32,000 bases of DNA from Candidatus Saccharimonadota bacterium (GTDB lineage: Bacteria > Patescibacteriota > Saccharimonadia > Saccharimonadales > Saccharimonadaceae): the NCBI GenBank assembly GCA_001897305.1, contig MKSO01000001.1, forward strand, positions 120,001-152,000, written 5' to 3'. Position 1 is the first letter of the stretch; each line of letters begins with the position of its first letter. Shown here piece after piece: positions 8,049-31,821 of the stretch. The notes beneath the pieces are model-generated. The model was not told the DNA's origin and made no database searches. It worked only from the letters and a program-made list of their open reading frames with translations. The position numbers were made by a program, and so were the translations under genes.

Positions 8049-8064
8049 TCTTGGTACAATCTAA

Positions 8065-8090
8065 AAAGAAGGCCCATTGGGCCTTCTTTT
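8065..8090. terminator. intrinsic terminator after the pilin gene
   Basis: AAAGAAGGCC-CATTG-GGCCTTCTTT hairpin flanked by an A-run and a T-run. Confidence 0.8.
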
Positions 8091-11228: not shown

Positions 11229-12487
11229 TGGTAAGTAACATGAAAAACATAAGCACATCAAAACAGAGTGGCGCCGTATCACTATTTGTGGTCATTTTTG
11301 CGATGCTTATTATTACCGTCGTTACCATTAGCTTCCTGCGTTTGATGATGGTTGACCAAAGCCAGGCCAGCGATACGGACTTATCCCAAAGTGCTTACGA
11401 CTCTGCCCAGGCTGGGGTAGAGGATGCCAAGAGGGCGTTGCTGCATTACCAGCAGGTGTGTAGTTCAACGCCATCACTCTGCGCAACCCTAGCTTCTAGT
11501 TTATCCTCAGACGTCTGTAATGCAGCCGTTTTGATTGATGGAGTTGTACCTTCATCGAGCGTTAAAGGCGGCACGCCAAGTACGCCTGGTGAGATTATGG
11601 TACAGCAATCGACCAGTGCAACAGATGCGATTCTGGACCAGGCTTATACCTGCGTTACGATGAAGCTTGCGACACAAGATTATGTTGGTCAACTTTCGGC
11701 AGATGACAGCCAGATAGTCCCTCTTATTAGTGAGTCACCTTATGATACGGTGACCATCCGATGGTTCAGTCGTGACGACCTCGCCGATTCAACTGGTGCG
11801 CTTGATTTACAAAACGTTGTTTCCGGGGCTCTTCTTCCAGAAAAAACCCAGGCCGGCTGGCCAACAACCCGGCCATCGTTAATGCGTGCCCAGCTCATTC
11901 AGTTTGGTAGTTCGTTTAAGCTCGATGGGTTTGATTACGTAAAGGACAGTGGTGGAACAACTCAAAGCAATGCTAACACGGTATTCTTGTACCCAAGCTC
12001 TTCTGCTGGCGCGAGTACTATCGACTCTTTCACGGCACTTGATACGCGCAAGGACAGTCCTACCGATGAACCTGATGCAGATTCTCCTACTAATACACCA
12101 AAGACAGTACGATGCCTTCCTAATATTAGTGGTGGCGGCTATGCATGTAGTATGTCGCTTCGGCTTCCAGAGCCAATTGATGGTGGCGGCCGCACGGCAT
12201 TTTTGCGATTGACGTCGCTTTATAATAAGTCTCATTTCCAGGTAGTTCTTACTAACGGCGGCGCTCCAGATACGGGCGGTACAAATATCATCAAATTTAA
12301 GGATGTTCAGCCCGAAGTCGATTCAACAGGGCGGGCAAACGATATCTTTAGGCGGGTTCAGAGCCGTGTAAACCTATATGACACAAGCTTCCCATACCCA
12401 GATGCCACAATTGATATTACTGGTAACTTCTGTAAAGACTTTGGCGTGACGGATAGCCAGTATATTGCCGGAAGCTGTACTCCTTAG
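11228..12487 (+). CDS. PilX-like large minor pilin / possible tip-associated protein
   Basis: The hydrophobic N-terminus SGAVSLFVVIFAMLIITVVTISFLRLM has no Glu at +5, a PilX_N-like pattern. It is 419 aa, shares a TAATG overlap with the upstream gene, and is the last gene of the operon. Confidence 0.6.
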   Translation: MVSNMKNISTSKQSGAVSLFVVIFAMLIITVVTISFLRLMMVDQSQASDTDLSQSAYDSAQAGVEDAKRALLHYQQVCSSTPSLCATLASSLSSDVCNAAVLIDGVVPSSSVKGGTPSTPGEIMVQQSTSATDAILDQAYTCVTMKLATQDYVGQLSADDSQIVPLISESPYDTVTIRWFSRDDLADSTGALDLQNVVSGALLPEKTQAGWPTTRPSLMRAQLIQFGSSFKLDGFDYVKDSGGTTQSNANTVFLYPSSSAGASTIDSFTALDTRKDSPTDEPDADSPTNTPKTVRCLPNISGGGYACSMSLRLPEPIDGGGRTAFLRLTSLYNKSHFQVVLTNGGAPDTGGTNIIKFKDVQPEVDSTGRANDIFRRVQSRVNLYDTSFPYPDATIDITGNFCKDFGVTDSQYIAGSCTP

Positions 12488-12622
12488 TTTTTCACGCCAG
12501 CCAGCAGTTTTAAGCTATAAGGAAATATCTGCAGCCCGAGTCTGAACGGGACGCTGGCGCCCGAGAAGACCCGGTGCGAAGCCATTTCCGTTAGATTGAA
12601 GCTGCTGGCTGGCGTGAAAAAC
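12487..12622 (-). repeat. gene-terminal rod-hairpin element, copy 1 (sense on minus strand, 3' of the xerC-like gene)
   Basis: The outer arms 12487-12507 and 12602-12622 are a perfect 21-bp inverted repeat. The 69-nt core at 12521-12589 is the reverse complement of the copy-2 core, differing by one C indel. Confidence 0.8.
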
Positions 12623-12628
12623 GAAGAA

Positions 12629-13555
12629 TTAGCGCTCGCTATGGAACTTTTCGTACACATCTTTTAGGTGGGCGTCGGTAACGTGAGTATAAATTTGGGT
12701 GGTAGAAATGTTACTGTGGCCGAGCATACTTTGTACGCTCCGCAGGTCGGCGCCGTTCATGAGAAGGTCGGTTGCAAAGCTATGGCGCATGGTGTGTGGG
12801 CTCACGTGCTTGGTGATACCAGCGAGTCGAGCATATTTGTTAATCATCCGCTGGATGCTACGGGCGGTAAGCCGACGATAATCGCCGCTAGTATTTGCCT
12901 CAACATTGCGGCTATAGCTAATAAACAGGGGGGCGAGTGTGTCTTGGCGCATGGCTAGGTACTGCTCAACCCAATCGGCGGCTGCTTGGCTAATAAAGAC
13001 CGGTCGATCCTTTTGGCCTTTACCGCGCACCATAAATTCGCGTCGCTTAGTGTTAATATGGTCGCGGTTAAGGTTTACAAGTTCCGAGACACGCAAACCA
13101 CTTGAGAATAACAGTTCAAGGATGGCACGGTCTCGCAGGCCGCTTTCCTCGTTAGTATCCACTTGCTCAAGCAGACGACCGACTTCATCGTAATGAAGGA
13201 AGGTGACTTGTTTGCGGTGGGTTTTAGGGAGTTCAATTTTATCGGGCGAGAGGGAAGGGATGTCGCGGCGGGAAAAGTATTTCAAGAAGCCGCGGAGGGC
13301 AATCAGGTGATAGGCTTGGGTAATCATAGCCAGCTCTTCGCCACGCTCGTTCTTTAACCGATTAAGCCACAGGCGATACTTACGAATCAGTTCGCTGGTG
13401 ATCTGGTCTGGGGTAATATCACCGGCAAATTCCACAAAACGGTTTAAATAGAATTCGTAGTTTTCGGCAGTTCGCGGCATGCGGCCGCCCTCAACCTCAA
13501 GATGCTCGATGAAGTCAAGAATATACTCTGAAACAAATTTTTGTTCGTAGGCCAT
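12629..13555 (-). CDS. xerC: tyrosine site-specific recombinase, XerC/XerD type
   Basis: It has an N-terminal SAM-like core-binding domain and a C-terminal catalytic region with R...HTMRHSFAT...LGHSNISTTQIYTHV (the R-H-R-Y family motifs). Confidence 0.9.
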   Translation of the reverse strand: MAYEQKFVSEYILDFIEHLEVEGGRMPRTAENYEFYLNRFVEFAGDITPDQITSELIRKYRLWLNRLKNERGEELAMITQAYHLIALRGFLKYFSRRDIPSLSPDKIELPKTHRKQVTFLHYDEVGRLLEQVDTNEESGLRDRAILELLFSSGLRVSELVNLNRDHINTKRREFMVRGKGQKDRPVFISQAAADWVEQYLAMRQDTLAPLFISYSRNVEANTSGDYRRLTARSIQRMINKYARLAGITKHVSPHTMRHSFATDLLMNGADLRSVQSMLGHSNISTTQIYTHVTDAHLKDVYEKFHSER

Positions 13556-13602
13556 ACTATAAGCATAGCCTAAAACACAGCTGTAGGGTAGAATAGATAC
13601 TA

Positions 13603-14397
13603 ATGTGGCAATGGCTTGAAGCAGTTATTTTGGGTATCATCCAGGGTGTTACCGAATTTATTCCGGTGAGTAGTTCGGGGCACTTAATTTTAGCTCAAAA
13701 CTTCCTTTCGGGCGCGTCAGATCACTTGTTTGTTCAATTCCTTGATATAGGCACAACGTTGGCGCTTATCATCTTCTTCCGCAAGCGTATTTGGCGCATT
13801 ATTACCGACGTATTTGTTCATAGGAATTACCGCTTAGCACGCAATCTTATTATTACTATTCTGCCAGCTGGGTTGATTGGCTTTGCCATGGCTGGTTTTA
13901 TCGAGACTAATAGTTTCTTCGGGAATCCGCTTGTGGTGGCGACTGGGCTGTTTGTGGTCGGTTTCATTATGGTGATTCTCGAAAAACTTCCTAAGACATC
14001 GTATGTACCTAACGGTGAACGCTTACCCTGGTGGCGCGCCTTGGTCATCGGTTTAGCTCAGGTGTTTGCCCTTATTCCTGGAGTGTCTCGTTCGGGCTCA
14101 ACCATTATTACTGGTCGACTCATGGGCCTAAAGCCTGCCGAAGCGGCTGAGTACAGCTTCTTGGTGTCGATCCCTATTATGCTCGGTGTGATTTTGAAGC
14201 TCATGCTGTCTGACCATGCCTATCTCGGCGCTCATCTGGGAGCAATTGTGGTTTCAAACCTGGCTGCCTTTATTGCAGGTATTCTGGTTATTCGTTTCTT
14301 GATGGGATACCTCTCGAAGCACAGCCTGGCGGCCTTTGGGTGGTACCGCATGGGTCTTGCGGTAGTCGTCATTGCGATAGTACTTTTGGTACAATGA
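13603..14397 (+). CDS. uppP: undecaprenyl-diphosphate phosphatase UppP (BacA)
   Basis: The GVTEFIPVSSSGHLIL motif and SRSG.T motif are present, with about 8 TM helices in 264 aa. TAGAAT (13589-13594) lies 8 nt upstream of the ATG. Confidence 0.92.
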   Translation: MWQWLEAVILGIIQGVTEFIPVSSSGHLILAQNFLSGASDHLFVQFLDIGTTLALIIFFRKRIWRIITDVFVHRNYRLARNLIITILPAGLIGFAMAGFIETNSFFGNPLVVATGLFVVGFIMVILEKLPKTSYVPNGERLPWWRALVIGLAQVFALIPGVSRSGSTIITGRLMGLKPAEAAEYSFLVSIPIMLGVILKLMLSDHAYLGAHLGAIVVSNLAAFIAGILVIRFLMGYLSKHSLAAFGWYRMGLAVVVIAIVLLVQ

Positions 14398-14430
14398 AGT
14401 TAGACAGCTAAATTCCAGGAAGGATACAGT

Positions 14431-14937
14431 ATGAGCGATCATATCCAACGAACATTGATTTTATTTAAACCGGATGCCGTACAGAGGGGTGTAGTGGGCG
14501 AGATCCTGACGCGATTCGAGCGTGTCGGCCTCAAAATTATTGGTACCAAGATGATCGCCCCAGATCGCGAACACTACTACAAGCATTACGAGGAAATTGG
14601 CCAAGTCATTACTCGTCGCGGTGAGAAGGTGTTCAATAATACGTTAAACCGTATGAATGAAGGCCCAGTTATTGCAATGGTGCTTGAGGGTGTTGAAGCG
14701 GTTGAACTCGTGCGTAAACTTGTTGGAACAACCGAGCCAAAATCAGCTGCACCAGGCACAATTCGTGGCGACTTTTCACATATGAGCTATGGCTATGGCG
14801 ACGCAACAGATCAGGGTATTCCAAACCTTATTCACGCTTCGGGTGACTTGGCTGATGCAAAGCAAGAGATTCCTCACTGGTTTAGCGAAGATGAGCTCTA
14901 CGACTACAGCGCGCTGAGCGAAAAATTTACTCGCTAA
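14431..14937 (+). CDS. ndk: nucleoside-diphosphate kinase
   Basis: ERTLILFKPDAVQRG and the NLIHASGD active-site His region are present. RBS AGGAAGGA. Confidence 0.92.
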   Translation: MSDHIQRTLILFKPDAVQRGVVGEILTRFERVGLKIIGTKMIAPDREHYYKHYEEIGQVITRRGEKVFNNTLNRMNEGPVIAMVLEGVEAVELVRKLVGTTEPKSAAPGTIRGDFSHMSYGYGDATDQGIPNLIHASGDLADAKQEIPHWFSEDELYDYSALSEKFTR

Positions 14938-14945
14938 CATTCGTT

Positions 14946-15077
14946 TGTCGAAAATCGATACAAGACAGTATCTACCGGAAATGGCTTCGCACCGGGTCTT
15001 CTCGGGCCGCCAGCGTCCCGTTCAGACTCGGGCTGCAGATATTTCCTTGTAGATACTGTCTGCACCGATTTTTGGCA
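14946..15077 (+). repeat. gene-terminal rod-hairpin element, copy 2 (3' of ndk)
   Basis: The outer arms 14946-14975 and 15049-15077 form an imperfect ~29-bp stem that includes G-U pairs. The core at 14977-15046 begins GGAAAT-GGCTTCGC and ends GCTGCAGAT-ATTTCC. Confidence 0.8.
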
Positions 15078-15101
15078 CCCATCTGTTAAAATGAAGTACA
15101 C

Positions 15102-15177
15102 GCCCCGCTAGCTCAACTGGAAGAGCAGATCCGTCCTAAGGATAAGGTTGTAGGTTCGACTCCTGCGCGGGGTACCA
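15102..15177 (+). tRNA. tRNA-Arg (anticodon CCU)
   Basis: Manual cloverleaf: acceptor GCCCCGC/GCGGGGT, D arm GCTC..GAGC, anticodon loop GTCCTAA, T arm GTAGG-TTCGACT-CCTGC, and an encoded CCA. TGTTAAAAT (15084-15092) lies just upstream. Confidence 0.9.
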
Positions 15178-15216
15178 GTATTCGTATTTTCGTGCTTATG
15201 GTAAACTATAAGTATT

Positions 15217-15840
15217 ATGGCAACCACAAAAAAGACAACCCCAAGCAAAAAACCATCTAAAACAACGAAAGCTGGTAAAAAAGTAAAGGCTCGTCCGTTA
15301 ACTTGGCGATTCTATGTTGTAACAGTAGGTATTTTTCTTGTTTCTGTTGCAGCAGTGGTTGTTTTGGCGCTTTTTGCTTCACAAATGGTGGCAAGACAAA
15401 ACGCCCAAGCTCGTCTTGATCGTATTAATCAGATTTATGCCAGCCTTAACCTCGATGACACCTATCTTCTCGCGAATTCCCATGTGTTCGGCGACAAGCG
15501 TGTCTACGAGTGGGATAAGAGCCGAACCTACTCTTCAGAGCAGGATTATATAAAAGGGGATACGGTAAGTAATACCGTTGCCGAGCTTGATGCAAAAATC
15601 AAGGCGGCAGGCTTTGGCTTCATCGATGAACCATATCCTGGAACAAAGGCTACGCAGTACCACTACAAGTCATCTAAAGGCGAATATATTCGTTTGACTG
15701 TCGAAAGTAAGCCGTACTGGGATGCTACCAGTAACGCCGCTGTCATGAATCAATCGCTGGAAAATATCGACTCAATGGATCCTAATGCGGGCCCTTCAAA
15801 AATTACCATCAAGGTCAATCTTGATGATAATAACGAATAG
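15217..15840 (+). CDS. hypothetical membrane-anchored protein (Lys-rich N-terminus, one TM helix)
   Basis: 207-aa ORF with MATTKKTTPSKKPSKTTKAGKK followed by a TM helix. No family recognised. Confidence 0.6.
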   Translation: MATTKKTTPSKKPSKTTKAGKKVKARPLTWRFYVVTVGIFLVSVAAVVVLALFASQMVARQNAQARLDRINQIYASLNLDDTYLLANSHVFGDKRVYEWDKSRTYSSEQDYIKGDTVSNTVAELDAKIKAAGFGFIDEPYPGTKATQYHYKSSKGEYIRLTVESKPYWDATSNAAVMNQSLENIDSMDPNAGPSKITIKVNLDDNNE

Positions 15841-18063: not shown

Positions 18064-18096
18064 AGCTACGCATTAATCTATTTGAATTCTGACCAC

Positions 18097-18127
18097 GAAA
18101 AAAGTTCACCGAAAGGTGAACTTGTTT
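18097..18127. terminator. bidirectional intrinsic terminator (sodA / tRNA-Asp)
   Basis: AAGTTCACC-GAAA-GGTGAACTT hairpin flanked by an A-run on the plus strand. That A-run reads as a T-run on the minus strand, downstream of tRNA-Asp. Confidence 0.75.
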
Positions 18128-18129
18128 CG

Positions 18130-18207
18130 TGGCGGGCCCGACCGGATTCGAACCGGCGATCTCCTCCGTGACAGGGAGGCGTGATAGGCCAGCTTCACTA
18201 CGAGCCC
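18130..18207 (-). tRNA. tRNA-Asp (anticodon GUC)
   Basis: The reverse complement folds as a cloverleaf: acceptor GGGCTCG/CGGGCCC, anticodon loop CTGTCAC, T loop TTCGAAT, and an encoded CCA. Confidence 0.92.
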
Positions 18208-24089: not shown

Positions 24090-25003
24090 ATAACGAATTG
24101 AACACAAAAAATACTCAAATAAGGGCTACTAATGGAGCGCCCTTAATAGTAGTTGTGGGCCCTACAGCAAGTGGCAAGTCGGCAGTTGCAATGCGGCTTG
24201 CGAAGGCGCTTAACGGTGAAATTATTTGTGCGGACTCACGAACAATATATACACACATGGATATCGGAACCGCGAAGCCAAGTGTTCAGGATAGGGCTGA
24301 AGTACCACATTGGGGCTTGGATTTAGTTGAACCTGGTGAGGTTTTTACAGCAGCTGATTTTAAACAATATGCGACCAAAAAGGTTGCTGAGATACGAAAG
24401 CGAGGGCATGTTCCGCTACTTGTAGGCGGCTCCGGTTTGTATGTAGATGGAGTTATTTTTGATTACACATTTGCTCAGCCAAGCCCGGAAAGGCGCGCGC
24501 AGCTCGAAAAACTGACACTCGAAGAGCTAAAAGAGTATTGTGCTAACAACAACATATCGTTACCTGAAAATGATAAAAATCGTCGCTACGTCATACGAGC
24601 GATCGAACGTCAAAATGATCAAACTAAGAGGTTATCTGAACCCATCGACAATACAATTATTGTAGGAATTGCAACAGACAGAGATGTCCTTCGACGGCGA
24701 ATAGAGGCTCGCAGTGAACAATTGTTTGAACAGGGAATGGTCGAAGAAGCTATTTTATTGGGCAAAAAATATGGCTGGAATTCTGAAGCAATGACTGGCA
24801 ATATTTATAAACTCGTTAAGCAATATACGGACAAGCAACTCACTTTAGACGAACTAAAACAAAAAAATACCATTGCCGACTGGCAGCTCGCAAAACGTCA
24901 ACTTACGTGGTTTAAACGCAACCCATTTATTCAATGGTTGCCACTCAATGATGTTTATGAATATGTACAAGAGCGGTTGATTGCCACCAAGCAAGCTGAG
25001 TAA
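24074..25003 (+). CDS. miaA: tRNA dimethylallyltransferase MiaA
   Basis: P-loop VVVGPTASGKS, plus DSRTIY and MDIGTAKP motifs. RBS AAGGAGG. It overlaps the ATL gene by 16 nt. Confidence 0.92.
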   Translation: MATSVNNELNTKNTQIRATNGAPLIVVVGPTASGKSAVAMRLAKALNGEIICADSRTIYTHMDIGTAKPSVQDRAEVPHWGLDLVEPGEVFTAADFKQYATKKVAEIRKRGHVPLLVGGSGLYVDGVIFDYTFAQPSPERRAQLEKLTLEELKEYCANNNISLPENDKNRRYVIRAIERQNDQTKRLSEPIDNTIIVGIATDRDVLRRRIEARSEQLFEQGMVEEAILLGKKYGWNSEAMTGNIYKLVKQYTDKQLTLDELKQKNTIADWQLAKRQLTWFKRNPFIQWLPLNDVYEYVQERLIATKQAE

Positions 25004-25110
25004 CGTAATTTACTAAAGCCGGCTTCAGGCCGGGTTCCGATGGGGTCTCTACGCCCATCTCCACTCGGCTTGCAGATGGCGTTTAGAAATTAGTTACTCA
25101 GCTTGCTTGG
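24987..25110 (+). repeat. gene-terminal rod-hairpin element, copy 3 (overlaps the miaA 3' end)
   Basis: The outer arms 24987-25004 and 25093-25110 are a perfect 18-bp repeat, extendable to ~31 bp with small bulges. The 5' arm contains the last 5 miaA codons and the TAA. The core is at 25021-25077. Confidence 0.8.
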
Positions 25111-25169
25111 CGCACCCAACCCCTTTGTGCTATCATAAAAGCAATAAATGTGAACAAAGGAACAGGGGA

Positions 25170-26468: not shown

Positions 26469-27464
26469 ATGTATTCGCGCCTGGGCAGCCGAAGCGGCTT
26501 TACGATTGTTGAACTGCTTATTGTAGTTGTAGTTATCGCTATTTTGGCGGCAATAACAATTGTTGCCTACAATGGCATTCAGAACCGGGCCAAAATATCA
26601 GCGGTAACATCTTCTATCGAAAGCGCTGTGAAGGCTATTGAGATATACGCACTGAAGAATGCCGATACATACCCATCGGATGCAGCCGCAGCTGGTTTGC
26701 CGAGTGGGAGCACTACAACGTATGAAGTTTCAAGTAATAATACAACGACTCCTAAGTCGTATTGTGTCACCGTAACGTTGAACGGCTTAACATACTTTCA
26801 AACAAGTGCTTCGCAAAAGGCATTGCCAGGTACATGTATGGGGCTCGCTGCGTGGTGGCCGTTTAACGGTGATGCGAAAGATATGAGCGGTAACGGTGCT
26901 GATGGTACTGTGAACGGTGCGTTACTTGTGGCAGGTGCGAATGGTTCTGCTAATAGTGCTTACCAGTTAGGCGAGTCGAGTCAGTATATCGCTATGGGTA
27001 CGCCGGCAAGTCTTTCGAATATACCGAGTGCGTTTACATACTCAGTATGGGTTGCGAGAACCGGTACTTCAACTGGTCAGTGGCCGCAAATTATGGGTGC
27101 TTCTGACACGCACGTTGGTTTTGGTATTCGTAGCTCAAATTACGGCACAAACGTCTACTTTGAGTGGGGAACCGCACCATATAGTGGCGCAACCTTTACT
27201 GGGACAGGTAACAATGGTGTACTGAGCACACTAAATGACTGGCATTTAATGACAGTAACGTATGATGGTTCGAAGGTATTAGCATACTGGGATGGGGCTC
27301 TAAAATCTACGAGCGGCACCACGACCTTGCGTCCAACAATGGCAAGTTTCTCGTTTACAACGAGCTCGGGTGGATGGCAGGGAAAGGTTGATGATGCCCG
27401 TGTGTATAATCGTCCACTGACGGCGGCGGAAATCCAAACGCTCTATTCGGCGGGCGCCCAATAA
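26469..27464 (+). CDS. type IV pilin-like protein fused to a LamG/concanavalin-A-like lectin domain
   Basis: The N-terminus SG/FTIVELLIVVVVIAILAAITIVAYNGIQNRA is a classic prepilin with Glu at +5. The C-terminal ~200 aa has Laminin_G_3 hallmarks (WWPFNGDAKDMSGNG...G..G ... W..V.VTYDG ... VDDARVYNRPLTAAEI). Confidence 0.8.
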   Translation: MYSRLGSRSGFTIVELLIVVVVIAILAAITIVAYNGIQNRAKISAVTSSIESAVKAIEIYALKNADTYPSDAAAAGLPSGSTTTYEVSSNNTTTPKSYCVTVTLNGLTYFQTSASQKALPGTCMGLAAWWPFNGDAKDMSGNGADGTVNGALLVAGANGSANSAYQLGESSQYIAMGTPASLSNIPSAFTYSVWVARTGTSTGQWPQIMGASDTHVGFGIRSSNYGTNVYFEWGTAPYSGATFTGTGNNGVLSTLNDWHLMTVTYDGSKVLAYWDGALKSTSGTTTLRPTMASFSFTTSSGGWQGKVDDARVYNRPLTAAEIQTLYSAGAQ

Positions 27465-27496
27465 AAAAGCTTCGCATTTAGGCGAAGCTTTTTTAT
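27463..27496. terminator. bidirectional intrinsic terminator (pilin-LamG / rpmB)
   Basis: AAAAAAGCTTCGC-ATTTAG-GCGAAGCTTTTTT. Confidence 0.85.
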
Positions 27497-27513
27497 TAAG
27501 ACCGAAATGGAAG

Positions 27514-29797: not shown

Positions 29798-29804
29798 TAA
29801 TAAA

Positions 29805-29933
29805 GGGGATCAGCAAAGTCTCCACCTCTCTTTTCGGATGGCTTCGCGCTGGGTTTCGACAGGGTCTCTACGCCTGTCTCACCTCAGGCTGCAGATATCG
29901 CTCAAAGAGAGGTGGAGACTTTGCTGATCACCC
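29805..29933 (+). repeat. gene-terminal rod-hairpin element, copy 4 (3' of the Nudix-RNase H gene)
   Basis: The outer arms 29808-29833 and 29904-29929 are a perfect 26-bp repeat, with GGG/CCC beyond a 1-nt bulge. The core is at 29840-29896 (GGCTTCGC...GGCTGCAGAT). Confidence 0.8.
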
Positions 29934-29940
29934 TTATCCT

Positions 29941-30326: not shown

Positions 30327-30328
30327 AA

Positions 30329-30359
30329 TAAAAACGCCCTCTTCTACGAGGGCGTTTTT
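30329..30359. terminator. bidirectional intrinsic terminator (rnpB / minus-strand membrane protein gene)
   Basis: AAAAACGCCCTC-TTCTAC-GAGGGCGTTTTT. Confidence 0.85.
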
Positions 30360-30360
30360 C

Positions 30361-31821
30361 TTATAATCGAAGTTCTTTAAAGGCCTTGAGGGCGATGGTG
30401 AGCATTTTGTTGTATTCTTCCGCACTGATGACCGTACTTGAGTTGACTAGGGATTTCACCATAAATAGCGTAGTGTCAGCGACTTCTATGTTGATGCCGG
30501 GGTCATTGTCGTATAAATATGCCATAAAGCCGGGGTTTATGAGTTCGAAAGAGGCTAGTCGGTCGGCATTCGTGGCGTATACCTCGTAACGATTGTTAAA
30601 ATCGGGCCATTCGTAAGTGTATTTTTTATAATTTTTTGGCATCCCCGAGAACGCTTTGAGGAAAGGGAATACTTTTGTCTTGCGCCTTACGACAATCCCT
30701 TCGTAAGAACGGGGGAGGGTAAGCTGGACGATGAGCATATTGGCTGCGCTGTTCTTTGGATTCGGATTGTAGGTATAGAGCTGGAACAGCAGCCCATTGT
30801 AGTAACCGATCGTATGGTTATTGATATCACTGACACCAAATCGGCCGCTTCCTAAGAGGACCCCTCTTTTTGGAATGAGCAGCCACCCCATATCAAGTGA
30901 ATAATACAGTCCATTTTGCTGTGCAAACTGAATAAGTGATTGGTTAGCTTGTCGTTTATCGGCGGTTTGCTGGGCAATGTCCGCTAGTAGCCAGGTGGTT
31001 TCACTGCGCACAAAGGTCCAGGCTTCTACGAATGAACTATTGTCTGTATATAACACCGAGCCATCGGTGTCGATTAATTGGTCTTTTGCTGTTGCTTCAA
31101 ATAATACAGTATAGGTATCTTTATTGGCTGCAGATGTATCGTCTACGGCATCAATGATGGCAGCACCACCAATACGTACGTTGCTCATTCTATTTGTTCG
31201 GCCAAGTTCTTTTAAAGCTTGTAGTAAAAGGGCGCTATGTTTTGCATAATCACGGGTGGTGTAGGTAGTGATACTTGCAAGGTTGAATTGCGACCAATCT
31301 TCTTGGTAGCGTAGGAAGCATTGACGTGCGTAGTCGAGCAGACTCGCTTCGTTCCAGCTAGCATCGGACTGACTGGCTTTTGCTATGGTTTGTCGTGTTT
31401 TTTTGATACGATTCGCAAGACGCTCCCATAGCCCGAAGAAGGCGGTAGACCACCCGATCCATATACCTATGGTTATAACAGAGGCTACGTAGATGCTAAA
31501 GAACCCACCGAGCATAAAGCCGATTATGAGTAGAATAATACTTACAAGGCTTGCGAAGGTTGCGCTGATAATAAGTTCAAGCTTTCTAGAGAAGAATTTC
31601 TTGATCAACTTACCTAAGTAGTGGCTCGGAACGGCTCCGAGCAGTATGAGGAATTCCGCACCGCCTCCGCCTCCGCCGCTACTAGAAGAGCCGCCACCAC
31701 CGGCGCGGGCGATGAGCTCTAGAGATGGAATTATAGAGAAAAGTGAATTGAACATAGGTAGTTCTATAGTACCATGCTGGGCATATTGGTGGGTGTATAA
31801 ACCAAACAAAAAACTGGCCAC
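30361..31821 (-). CDS. membrane protein with a Gly/Ser-rich tract, a Tim44-like (NTF2-fold) domain and a DUF3137-like C-terminal domain
   Basis: A long ORF containing GGGGSSSSGGGGGG, 3 TM helices, then W..F.R....W.L..I.Q-type Tim44-like features and a C-terminal region resembling DUF3137. These domain calls are by eye and tentative. The GTG start at 31821 is doubtful. ATG 31755 lies 10 nt after TGGTACTAT (31774-31766) and is an alternative. Confidence 0.7.
   Translation of the reverse strand: MASFLFGLYTHQYAQHGTIELPMFNSLFSIIPSLELIARAGGGGSSSSGGGGGGAEFLILLGAVPSHYLGKLIKKFFSRKLELIISATFASLVSIILLIIGFMLGGFFSIYVASVITIGIWIGWSTAFFGLWERLANRIKKTRQTIAKASQSDASWNEASLLDYARQCFLRYQEDWSQFNLASITTYTTRDYAKHSALLLQALKELGRTNRMSNVRIGGAAIIDAVDDTSAANKDTYTVLFEATAKDQLIDTDGSVLYTDNSSFVEAWTFVRSETTWLLADIAQQTADKRQANQSLIQFAQQNGLYYSLDMGWLLIPKRGVLLGSGRFGVSDINNHTIGYYNGLLFQLYTYNPNPKNSAANMLIVQLTLPRSYEGIVVRRKTKVFPFLKAFSGMPKNYKKYTYEWPDFNNRYEVYATNADRLASFELINPGFMAYLYDNDPGINIEVADTTLFMVKSLVNSSTVISAEEYNKMLTIALKAFKELRL

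Follow-up and report, generated by a model that had tools for sequence, protein, structure and literature searches.

Four palindromic elements in the window

The 32,000 nucleotides (nt) analysed here, in the following called the window, are positions 120,001 to 152,000 of contig MKSO01000001.1 from a Saccharibacteria genome (Candidatus Saccharimonadota bacterium, assembly GCA_001897305.1). Four long palindromes are found in the window, next to a xerC-like gene, ndk, miaA and rnpB, and each of them is preceded by a stop codon (Table 1). In a first-pass annotation, made from the sequence alone, these palindromes were described as gene-terminal hairpins which share a structured core of about 57 nt and carry an outer stem specific to each locus. 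The same element was searched for in other genomes, and sites which contain it were compared with related sites which do not.

The common core was identified in all four copies, with a length of 57-58 nt and the layout GGCTTC-NNN-CYGGGT-(hairpin)-CTCRG-NN-TGCAGAT. A covariance model run with the filters off finds exactly four copies in the window (64.6-67.4 bits; 17-21 bits on the reverse strands) and no fifth one. The compensatory changes between copies 3 and 4 described before are present as well, namely GATGGG/CCCATC versus GACAGG/CCTGTC in one helix and C-G versus T-A in the P2 stem. On folding, each copy forms one long rod with z values of -7.2 to -11.4 relative to dinucleotide shuffles. 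The arms of copy 1 (12473-12517/12592-12636) are 45 nt long and 82% paired with a perfect run of 21 bp, those of copy 2 have a perfect run of 13 bp and imperfect outer pairing, the perfect arms of copy 3 (24987-25004/25093-25110) comprise 18 nt (100%), and the arms of copy 4 (29800-29833/29904-29937) comprise 34 nt (94%). None of the four copies matches an Rfam family, neither at the gathering thresholds nor at E<=10, in line with the annotation, which had recognised no named RNA family. The short GC stem with U-tract, reported as missing, is also not found: a consensus scan of 12300-15300 detected no terminator and no sigma-70 promoter in or beside copies 1 and 2.

Table 1. Positions of the four palindromic elements and of their parts in the window.
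Feature	Position	Strand	Remarks
Copy 1, full palindrome (arms and core)	12473..12636	-	between the convergent stops of a 419-aa open reading frame (ends 12487) and the xerC-like gene (stop 12629-12631)
Copy 1, inserted block	~12488-12628		from the positions of the two stop codons
Copy 1, core, 57 nt	12527..12583	-	pattern match; covariance-model hit 12519-12591, 66.7 bits
Copy 2, full palindrome	14946..15077	+	after the ndk stop (14937), before the tRNA-Arg promoter/gene (15102)
Copy 2, core, 58 nt	14983..15040	+	98% identity to the core of copy 1
Copy 3, full palindrome	24954..25144	+	imperfect pairing ~67 nt outward from the core on both sides
Copy 3, left arm			final ~50 nt of miaA, stop codon included
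Copy 3, core, 57 nt	25021..25077	+	pattern match and covariance model
Copy 4, full palindrome	29800..29937	+	between a 345-aa open reading frame (ends 29797) and rnpB (29959)
Copy 4, core, 57 nt	29840..29896	+	pattern match and covariance model

Four other hairpins of the window (18093-18132, 27460-27497, 30327-30362 and 8064-8090) have stems of 13-18 bp, loops of 1-6 nt and in several cases A-tract/T-tract bases. They lack the core and look like ordinary bidirectional terminators. Directly upstream of the tRNA-Arg(CCT) gene the sequence ATCTGTTAAAAT is conserved, in the window (15078-15101) as well as at the same position in the collected loci (L numbers) L008, L012, L042, L068, L096, L106, L116 and L122. 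It resembles an extended -10 promoter with no recognisable -35 box, and was not detected by the consensus promoter scan.

A large family in Saccharibacteria

The exact core pattern was used as a seed in a genome set with one genome per species and in collections of metagenome and viral contigs. In the genome set 59 stretches from about 40 assemblies were found, all of them from Saccharibacteria or from bacteria with Saccharibacteria-like genes, and the metagenomes contributed at least 115 stretches. The only match in the viral contig collection is L178:5422-5478 (IMGVR_UViG_3300048576_000578), which could be a misbinned Saccharibacteria contig or a prophage; with this one match alone, a phage origin of the element was rejected. 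Running the covariance model on further genomes, as the annotation had suggested, revealed many more copies. In about 1.2 Mb of collected loci (about 40 Saccharibacteria metagenome-assembled genomes plus metagenomes) it identified 174 strong copies, 165 of them unique. All family counts given below refer to these pattern-seeded loci, the metagenome part being the matches listed (at least 115).

From the copies which a locus contains in addition to its seeding one, a density of about one copy per 64 kb, or roughly 15 copies per genome, is estimated. The window is dense with four copies in 32 kb. One of the loci with ndk and xerC-like genes, L012 (JAEYUP010000001.1), is labelled 'Candidatus Parcubacteria bacterium'. 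These two genes are 77-83% identical to those of the window and the synteny is the same, and the label is probably wrong as judged from sequence. Full-text searching of the literature found no description of such elements in Saccharibacteria, TM7 or the candidate phyla radiation (CPR).

Across the family the core is 55-59 nt long and the whole palindrome has a median length of 126 nt. The base of the core is near-invariant and strand-asymmetric, with GGCUUC/UGCAGAU followed by CCGGGU/ACUCGG including a G.U pair, and it contains G.U, G.A and U.C oppositions as well as single-base bulges. The tip helix evolves fast and changes freely with compensation. Two independent sets both show strong covariation of the kind seen in the window copies: in the genome set, 85.6% of the cells are paired versus 72.2% after shuffling, with 294 versus 103 double-change cells (reached in 0 of 500 shuffles), and in the metagenome set the values are 85.3% versus 71.3% and 380 versus 134. 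The same nucleotides are conserved whatever the frame or strand of the host gene, which indicates a constraint on the nucleic acid itself and not on a peptide or the host mRNA. About half of the second copies in the loci, which were not selected by the seed, fit the strict pattern, and degenerate inserts exist.

Copies within genes

Fifty-six of the 165 copies (at least 34%) are located in frame within long open reading frames (ORFs), 26 of them in sense and 30 in antisense orientation (p=0.69). They make use of each of the six reading frames, and none contains an in-frame stop. The frame of the host gene is open on both sides of the element in all 56 cases, and the homologous protein continues in frame. 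Host proteins assigned by Pfam or the Protein Data Bank (PDB) are TopA (two different sites), LeuRS, CysRS, AlaRS, an RNase HII-UPF0102 fusion, TatD, Fpg, PrmC, an FtsJ/S4 methyltransferase, TsaD, MnmA and Dus.

The copies add about 37-45 residues to these proteins. In TsaD the insert is purely additive, with 43 residues placed between PDB residues 122 and 124, and the same is true for MnmA in comparison to a solved homologue (about 37-40 residues); these sizes match the median palindrome length of 126 nt. The Dus insert lies where a linker joins the barrel to the C-terminal helical domain, and it is predicted to be disordered (predicted local distance difference test score of 34-41). Judged by the open frames, copies within ORFs are read through as an extra loop of that size. 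The peptides differ with the frame and are unrelated to each other (TSAARVS..ETRxEAV, HLQPE..DPERSR, GFAPG..TRAADV, RLRAGS..). A profile of the first of them, run against 5.8 billion proteins, was passed by four short spurious ORFs and nothing more, a search which is uninformative because the peptide is too short for a database of that size. The LeuRS with the element in L055 (2027-5026) contains, in addition, a match to a NUDIX domain within the synthetase (residues 423-544), which is unusual and has nothing to do with the element.

A conserved and covarying hairpin within the coding regions of essential genes might also be a small, intron-like intervening sequence, which is removed at the RNA or DNA level and never translated. 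We consider this hardly credible. The frames of all 56 copies stay open on both sides with the protein homology continuing, six frames are used with zero in-frame stops, no ribozyme or intron family was matched in Rfam, and we know of no machinery in bacteria for such an excision.

Intergenic copies and orientation

Intergenic positions are occupied by 72 of the 165 copies. Intergenic contexts are mostly tandem (3'/5', 47), followed by divergent gene starts (5'/5', 20) and convergent genes (3'/3', 10). Orientation with respect to the upstream gene is evenly divided, with 5:5 at the 3' site of ndk and 7:7 at the 3' site of miaA. Where two copies lie next to each other, 47-167 nt apart, they are convergent in eight of eight cases (L046, L064, L072, L088, L089, L117, L158, L174), and two of these pairs lie within a single gene, TsaD in L046 and MnmA in L072. 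The arms of such pairs are unrelated and the core subtypes differ, and the idea that the two members are inverted duplications of each other was rejected on these grounds.

The first-pass annotation had taken every copy to be gene-terminal and in sense orientation. That all four window copies follow a stop codon is correct, but copy 1 lies between convergent genes and is antisense to one of them, and with 56 copies in ORFs, in both orientations, such a placement does not define the element. This bears on the functions proposed at the same time, according to which the element would be a structured cis-acting RNA at gene 3' ends, that is a terminator or insulator of unconventional type, a site of RNase III processing or an element which stabilises the 3' end. 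The random orientation (ndk 5:5, miaA 7:7, ORF copies 26:30), the 20 copies between divergent gene starts and the copies in essential ORFs, in which termination or RNase III cleavage would do damage, indicate that none of these is the general function, and the terminator scan was empty at the window copies. On the other hand, in 119 of 126 copies the 'sense' strand gives the more stable core (the antisense strand does so in 7), the core has conserved G.U pairs, the four window copies do follow stop codons, some rods have an A-tract/T-tract base, and at ndk the element occupies the position of the intrinsic terminator of other genomes. The strong covariation in both sets fits an RNA as well, but is equally expected of a DNA palindrome whose arms are kept matched by template switching. 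Altogether an RNA function of this kind is quite improbable. The element is an insertion at the DNA level and not an RNA signal tied to gene ends.

Gain, loss and inversion

Filled and empty sites can be compared for several genes. At site A of TopA the element is present in L015, L050 and L030 but missing from L034 and L038, while the reverse is found for site B. The junction between the xerC-like gene and the 419-aa ORF is filled in the window (copy 1) and in the orthologous locus L045, but in eight other loci it is empty and the two stops are only 0-28 nt apart (e.g. TAA|CTA in L165). The approximately 141 nt of copy 1 are therefore an insertion. At the 3' site of ndk the element is present in about 9-10 loci, in either orientation, and absent from seven. 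Dus is filled in DAIDJW and empty in DAIDKE and P0007 at 80-81% amino-acid identity, and among the 120 closest Dus homologues about 22 have an insert of some kind at the linker site.

The seven loci in which ndk has no element (L042:6454-6520, L073, L147:1137-1200, L165, L020, L066 and L115) contain a canonical terminator at this place, consisting of A-tract, GC stem and T-tract. Genomes with the element after ndk have no separate terminator.

Copy 1 is located beside the gene of a xerC-like tyrosine recombinase (window 12629-13555), and the same neighbourhood is seen in L045 and L101. A link between element and recombinase was rejected, since eight related loci have the gene and no element; the adjacency looks coincidental.

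The core can be inverted in place. L034 and L038 (TopA) as well as L110 and L128 (Dus) have homologous arms and similar cores, with the core in opposite orientation. In orthologous pairs with flanks at least 90% identical the orientation is the same in 20 of 20 cases, so there is no sign of rapid switching, while flanks of 80-90% identity give 14 pairs with the same and 17 with opposite orientation. Cores also become alike within a genome. Nearly half of the within-assembly core pairs (13 of 27) are at least 90% identical, compared with a between-genome median of 0.69, and DAIDJW has an identical core in AlaRS, TopA and Dus. At orthologous sites with flanks of 90-97% identity, the core identity is just about 0.75. 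The combination of both observations indicates concerted evolution or rapid replacement of the cores.

These data can be read in another way, namely that the host maintains the element as a DNA hairpin or cruciform for a conserved protein (a recombinase or a nucleoid, replication or repair factor), with about 15 sites per genome, a chromosomal function and possibly a regulated inversion similar to that of intragenic invertons. The near-invariant, asymmetric core base over many species and in any frame or orientation, the estimated density of about one copy per 64 kb, the inversion of the core between its arms and strand asymmetries which follow the element and not the host genes would be in line with such a site, as would its persistence at orthologous positions (14 loci for miaA, about 10 for ndk, 8 for Dus). 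However, at every site examined the element is present in some close relatives and absent from others, an insert is missing in about 80% of the closest Dus homologues, and in the 20 near-identical pairs no difference in orientation is seen. The placement in essential proteins looks tolerated rather than designed, as the insert is a linker predicted to be disordered, and no candidate protein was found. We therefore regard a host-maintained site as unlikely.

Origin of the arms

The ends of the element differ between loci, even within one genome (L026, L034 and L056), and what is shared is the core plus about 5-12 nt. The earlier statement that the outer stems are unrelated between copies does not hold throughout, as one subfamily has conserved arms of about 30 nt (CGCCTTTTCGCCA../..GGCGAGCGGCTC) in different host genes; in that case the mobile unit can be about 125 nt.

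In several places the arms were found to be made of host sequence. In L045 the 5' arm takes in the final 13 nt of the xerC-like gene and 8 nt more, which match the end of the other gene; the 3' arm repeats all 21 nt perfectly in inverted form, and its inner part matches the start of the opposite flank. At the miaA site the pairing reaches about 50 nt into the miaA ORF in at least nine loci, including copy 3 of the window. At TopA site B one arm consists of the native FEA(T/V) codons and the other arm covaries between L034 and L038 with three consecutive double changes, and the Dus arms GAAGTTG../..CAACTTC contain native QLL codons. The arms extend at least 9 nt into the ORF in 31 of the 67 copies which adjoin a gene 3' end. 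Intergenic arms are longer (median 31.5 Watson-Crick pairs) than intragenic ones (22-26). No pre-existing palindrome is found at the empty xerC junction or at the empty ORF sites (TopA, Dus, TsaD, MnmA). Remains of older copies, left by nested insertion, were rejected as a general source of the arms, core-like 8-mers being present at 0.80 in arms and 0.82 in controls 210-260 nt away.

Mismatches within the arms are strongly biased. A.C oppositions outnumber G.U oppositions 329 to 138 (83 loci versus 25, p=2e-8), and on the strand that reads GGCTTC...GCAGAT, C facing A or T is much commoner than G facing T or A. Sense-ORF, antisense-ORF and intergenic copies all show the same bias. It is seen only at about 6-35 nt from the core, and the core itself is biased in the opposite way.

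Two sites contain further palindromes that are not members of the family as modelled. At the miaA 3' site of L147 (13862-14060) and L097 (4828-5030) the 57-nt core is replaced by a different rod of about 190 nt, which has perfect arms of 35 bp with the last codons of miaA, an unrelated interior, a minimum free energy of -111 kcal/mol and a z value of -16. The outermost arm of this rod (AAAAGCTAACTG/CAGTTAGCTTTT) is shared with L113, L107 and L084, which hold the 57-nt core. The rod was missed by the covariance model and may represent a second element family or an exchangeable interior. The Dus linker site carries other inserts of 30-100 residues elsewhere (L180:~2230-2400 = P0006; P0012, P0020, P0050, P0054, P0058, P0059, P0107), at least one of which is palindromic (arms TCGAGAGCTCGCCGACTGCT/AGCAGCCGCCGAGCTCTCGA) with no match to the core model. 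This site looks like a hot spot for several kinds of palindromic inserts, or for degenerate copies.

One might then ask whether the outer stems were built by the element at all, or whether they are pre-existing hairpins (terminators or older palindromes) into whose loops the core inserts. The empty ndk sites have their A-tract/GC-stem/T-tract hairpin at just this position, window copy 2 and L012 show A/T tracts at the base of the rod, the miaA rods of L147 and L097 share their outermost arm with relatives that have a different interior, and the Dus site hosts several unrelated palindromic inserts. But at several empty xerC/419-aa ORF junctions only 0-1 nt lie between the stops, which leaves no room for a hairpin, and the TopA, Dus, TsaD and MnmA sites have no earlier palindrome. 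In addition one arm contains native coding sequence which the opposite arm repeats in inverted form, and core-like 8-mers are not enriched in the arms. Insertion into existing hairpins is accordingly an unlikely origin of the arms.

Interpretation and possible mechanism

Taken together, the four rods of the window belong to a family of short palindromic DNA insertions in Saccharibacteria, which are probably selfish, or were so formerly, and resemble Rickettsia palindromic elements (RPEs) in their behaviour. Among the roles offered by the first-pass annotation, that of a mobile element which makes an inverted copy of its target agrees best with the comparison of filled and empty sites. If copies at gene ends act in the manner of a terminator or stabilise RNA, this would be a side effect.

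The following mechanism may be suggested. The core hairpin would form in single-stranded DNA, where it might be recognised by a putative trans-acting protein, or the core might be copied between loci by gene conversion. A hairpin in the nascent strand could fold back and prime the copying of its own upstream flank, or switch the template across the fork. Adjacent host sequence would in this way be copied in inverted form, so that the palindrome grows outward and its arms are repeatedly re-matched, resulting in outer stems specific to each locus. Such growth by snap-back or template switching would explain why the arms are longer between genes than within them. That template switching can create the arms of a palindrome and maintain their match has been published; the mechanism is established for quasi-palindromes and proposed for coding palindromes (PMC6649704).

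Several observations weigh against a family of selfish insertions. No transposase or dedicated enzyme was found, the recurrent neighbours of the copies (miaA, a winged helix-turn-helix-like gene, ndk, a PriA-like gene and xerC) being syntenic housekeeping genes only, and no HUH/Y1 motif was detected in six-frame ORFs of the 1.24 Mb around the copies, a crude search that used a regular expression instead of a profile and covered loci rather than whole genomes. The filled and empty junctions examined show no consistent direct repeat, although a 3-4 nt (C)TAA repeat is possible at copy 1. The arms of window copy 1 and of the Dus insert in L056 match neither flank. Since the empty ndk sites hold a terminator hairpin at the position of the element, insertion into an existing hairpin is possible at that site. 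The conservation of the core base over many species and frames exceeds what is expected of decaying selfish DNA and could reflect a host function; part of it is due to ascertainment, as most core-base positions were demanded by the seeding pattern. Finally, both the A.C versus G.U bias of the arm mismatches and the convergent pairing of all eight adjacent pairs are intrinsic to the orientation of the element, and this reading does not account for them.

This bias and the convergent pairs indicate that something within the element itself makes its two strands unlike. It is this difference which chiefly supports a strand-specific single-stranded intermediate, or else a dedicated protein. More speculatively, the family could be a long-lived, vertically inherited intragenomic replicator, in which one strand of the asymmetric core is handled by a putative dedicated enzyme (similar to REPIN/RAYT systems or to single-strand 'peel-and-paste' transposition) and the chemistry of insertion or maintenance itself writes the inverted target copy alongside. 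We hold this to be rather unlikely. If it were true, the inverted target copy would be a transposition outcome not described for bacterial elements, and the arm bias, the eight convergent pairs and the homogenisation of the cores would be footprints of that mechanism.

Comparison to known palindromic repeats

RPEs are short (about 100-150 bp) dispersed palindromic repeats of a small genome, about a third to a half of which are inserted in frame in unrelated housekeeping genes, where they add an extra peptide; they also occur between genes, have no transposase and occupy shared orthologous sites (PMC10969869). They are described as decaying over time (PMC6649704). The Saccharibacteria family is alike in its length, its stable hairpin and dispersed distribution, the missing transposase, the in-frame insertion in unrelated housekeeping genes (56 of 165 copies), the intergenic copies and the shared orthologous sites. 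The similarity meant here is one of behaviour, and the phylum is another one. In contrast to RPEs, which encode one conserved peptide, the Saccharibacteria family uses all six frames and yields unrelated peptides; it is conserved in the central hairpin, with variable ends that are partly copies of the host flank, and its cores are homogenised within genomes and flip, whereas RPEs decay.

Repetitive extragenic palindromic sequences (REPs) and the REPINs formed from them, which are associated with RAYT transposases, share imperfect hairpin palindromes with the present family. REPINs are described as forming near-identical within-genome populations with long vertical persistence and a strand asymmetry suggesting recognition of folded single-stranded DNA, and in all three respects they seem similar. 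REPs are however extragenic, 20-40 nt long and tagged with GTAG or CGTC, and a REPIN consists of two conserved REPs around a spacer. In the Saccharibacteria family at least 34% of the copies lie within genes, a conserved tetranucleotide tag is missing, and it is the tip that is conserved. [quoted passage not shown] Apart from the subfamily with conserved arms, the termini of the Saccharibacteria family vary by locus, and no parent IS was seen. The annotation had noted that this is the opposite of the conserved ends of classical MITEs and REPs.

Coding palindromes in the mitochondria of Nematomorpha are also long inverted repeats in translated genes with matched arms, for which template switching was proposed (PMC6649704). 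They have no shared core and both arms encode native protein, while the Saccharibacteria family has a common core and one arm is extra. Intrinsic terminators are similar as hairpins just after a stop codon and, at ndk, by the position of the relatives' terminator; they differ by the short GC stem and U-tract, which the window copies lack, and by the random orientation and frequent location in ORFs of the present family. Integron attC sites are built in reverse, with conserved outer R''/R' boxes and a variable centre, and form cassette arrays beside an integron integrase, whereas the Saccharibacteria copies are scattered among and inside housekeeping genes. With regard to intragenic invertons, orientation was the same in all 20 pairs with at least 90% flank identity and randomised at 80-90%, in a comparison made between assemblies. 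RPE-like palindromic repeats inserted in frame are thus known; the phylum, the inverted architecture with conserved centre and variable ends, and the flank-copying arms are new and apparently undescribed.

Implications for small genomes

Saccharibacteria and other ultrasmall CPR bacteria have streamlined genomes of about 1 Mb. A persistent repeat within TopA, aminoacyl-tRNA synthetases, TsaD, MnmA and Dus is unexpected in such genomes. To our knowledge, Rickettsia, an unrelated lineage whose genome is also reduced, is the one well-known example in which palindromic DNA has colonised essential genes in frame. The extension of this phenomenon to Saccharibacteria suggests that it is possibly a general feature of small genomes.

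Inserts of about 40 residues distort protein alignments, gene calls and phylogenies based on CPR marker genes, and the rods can pass wrongly for regulatory RNAs. The pairs of filled and empty sites are a natural record of palindrome growth by flank copying, of inversion in place and of the concerted evolution of dispersed 57-nt repeats. All three processes can be tested in the Saccharibacteria strains that are now culturable.

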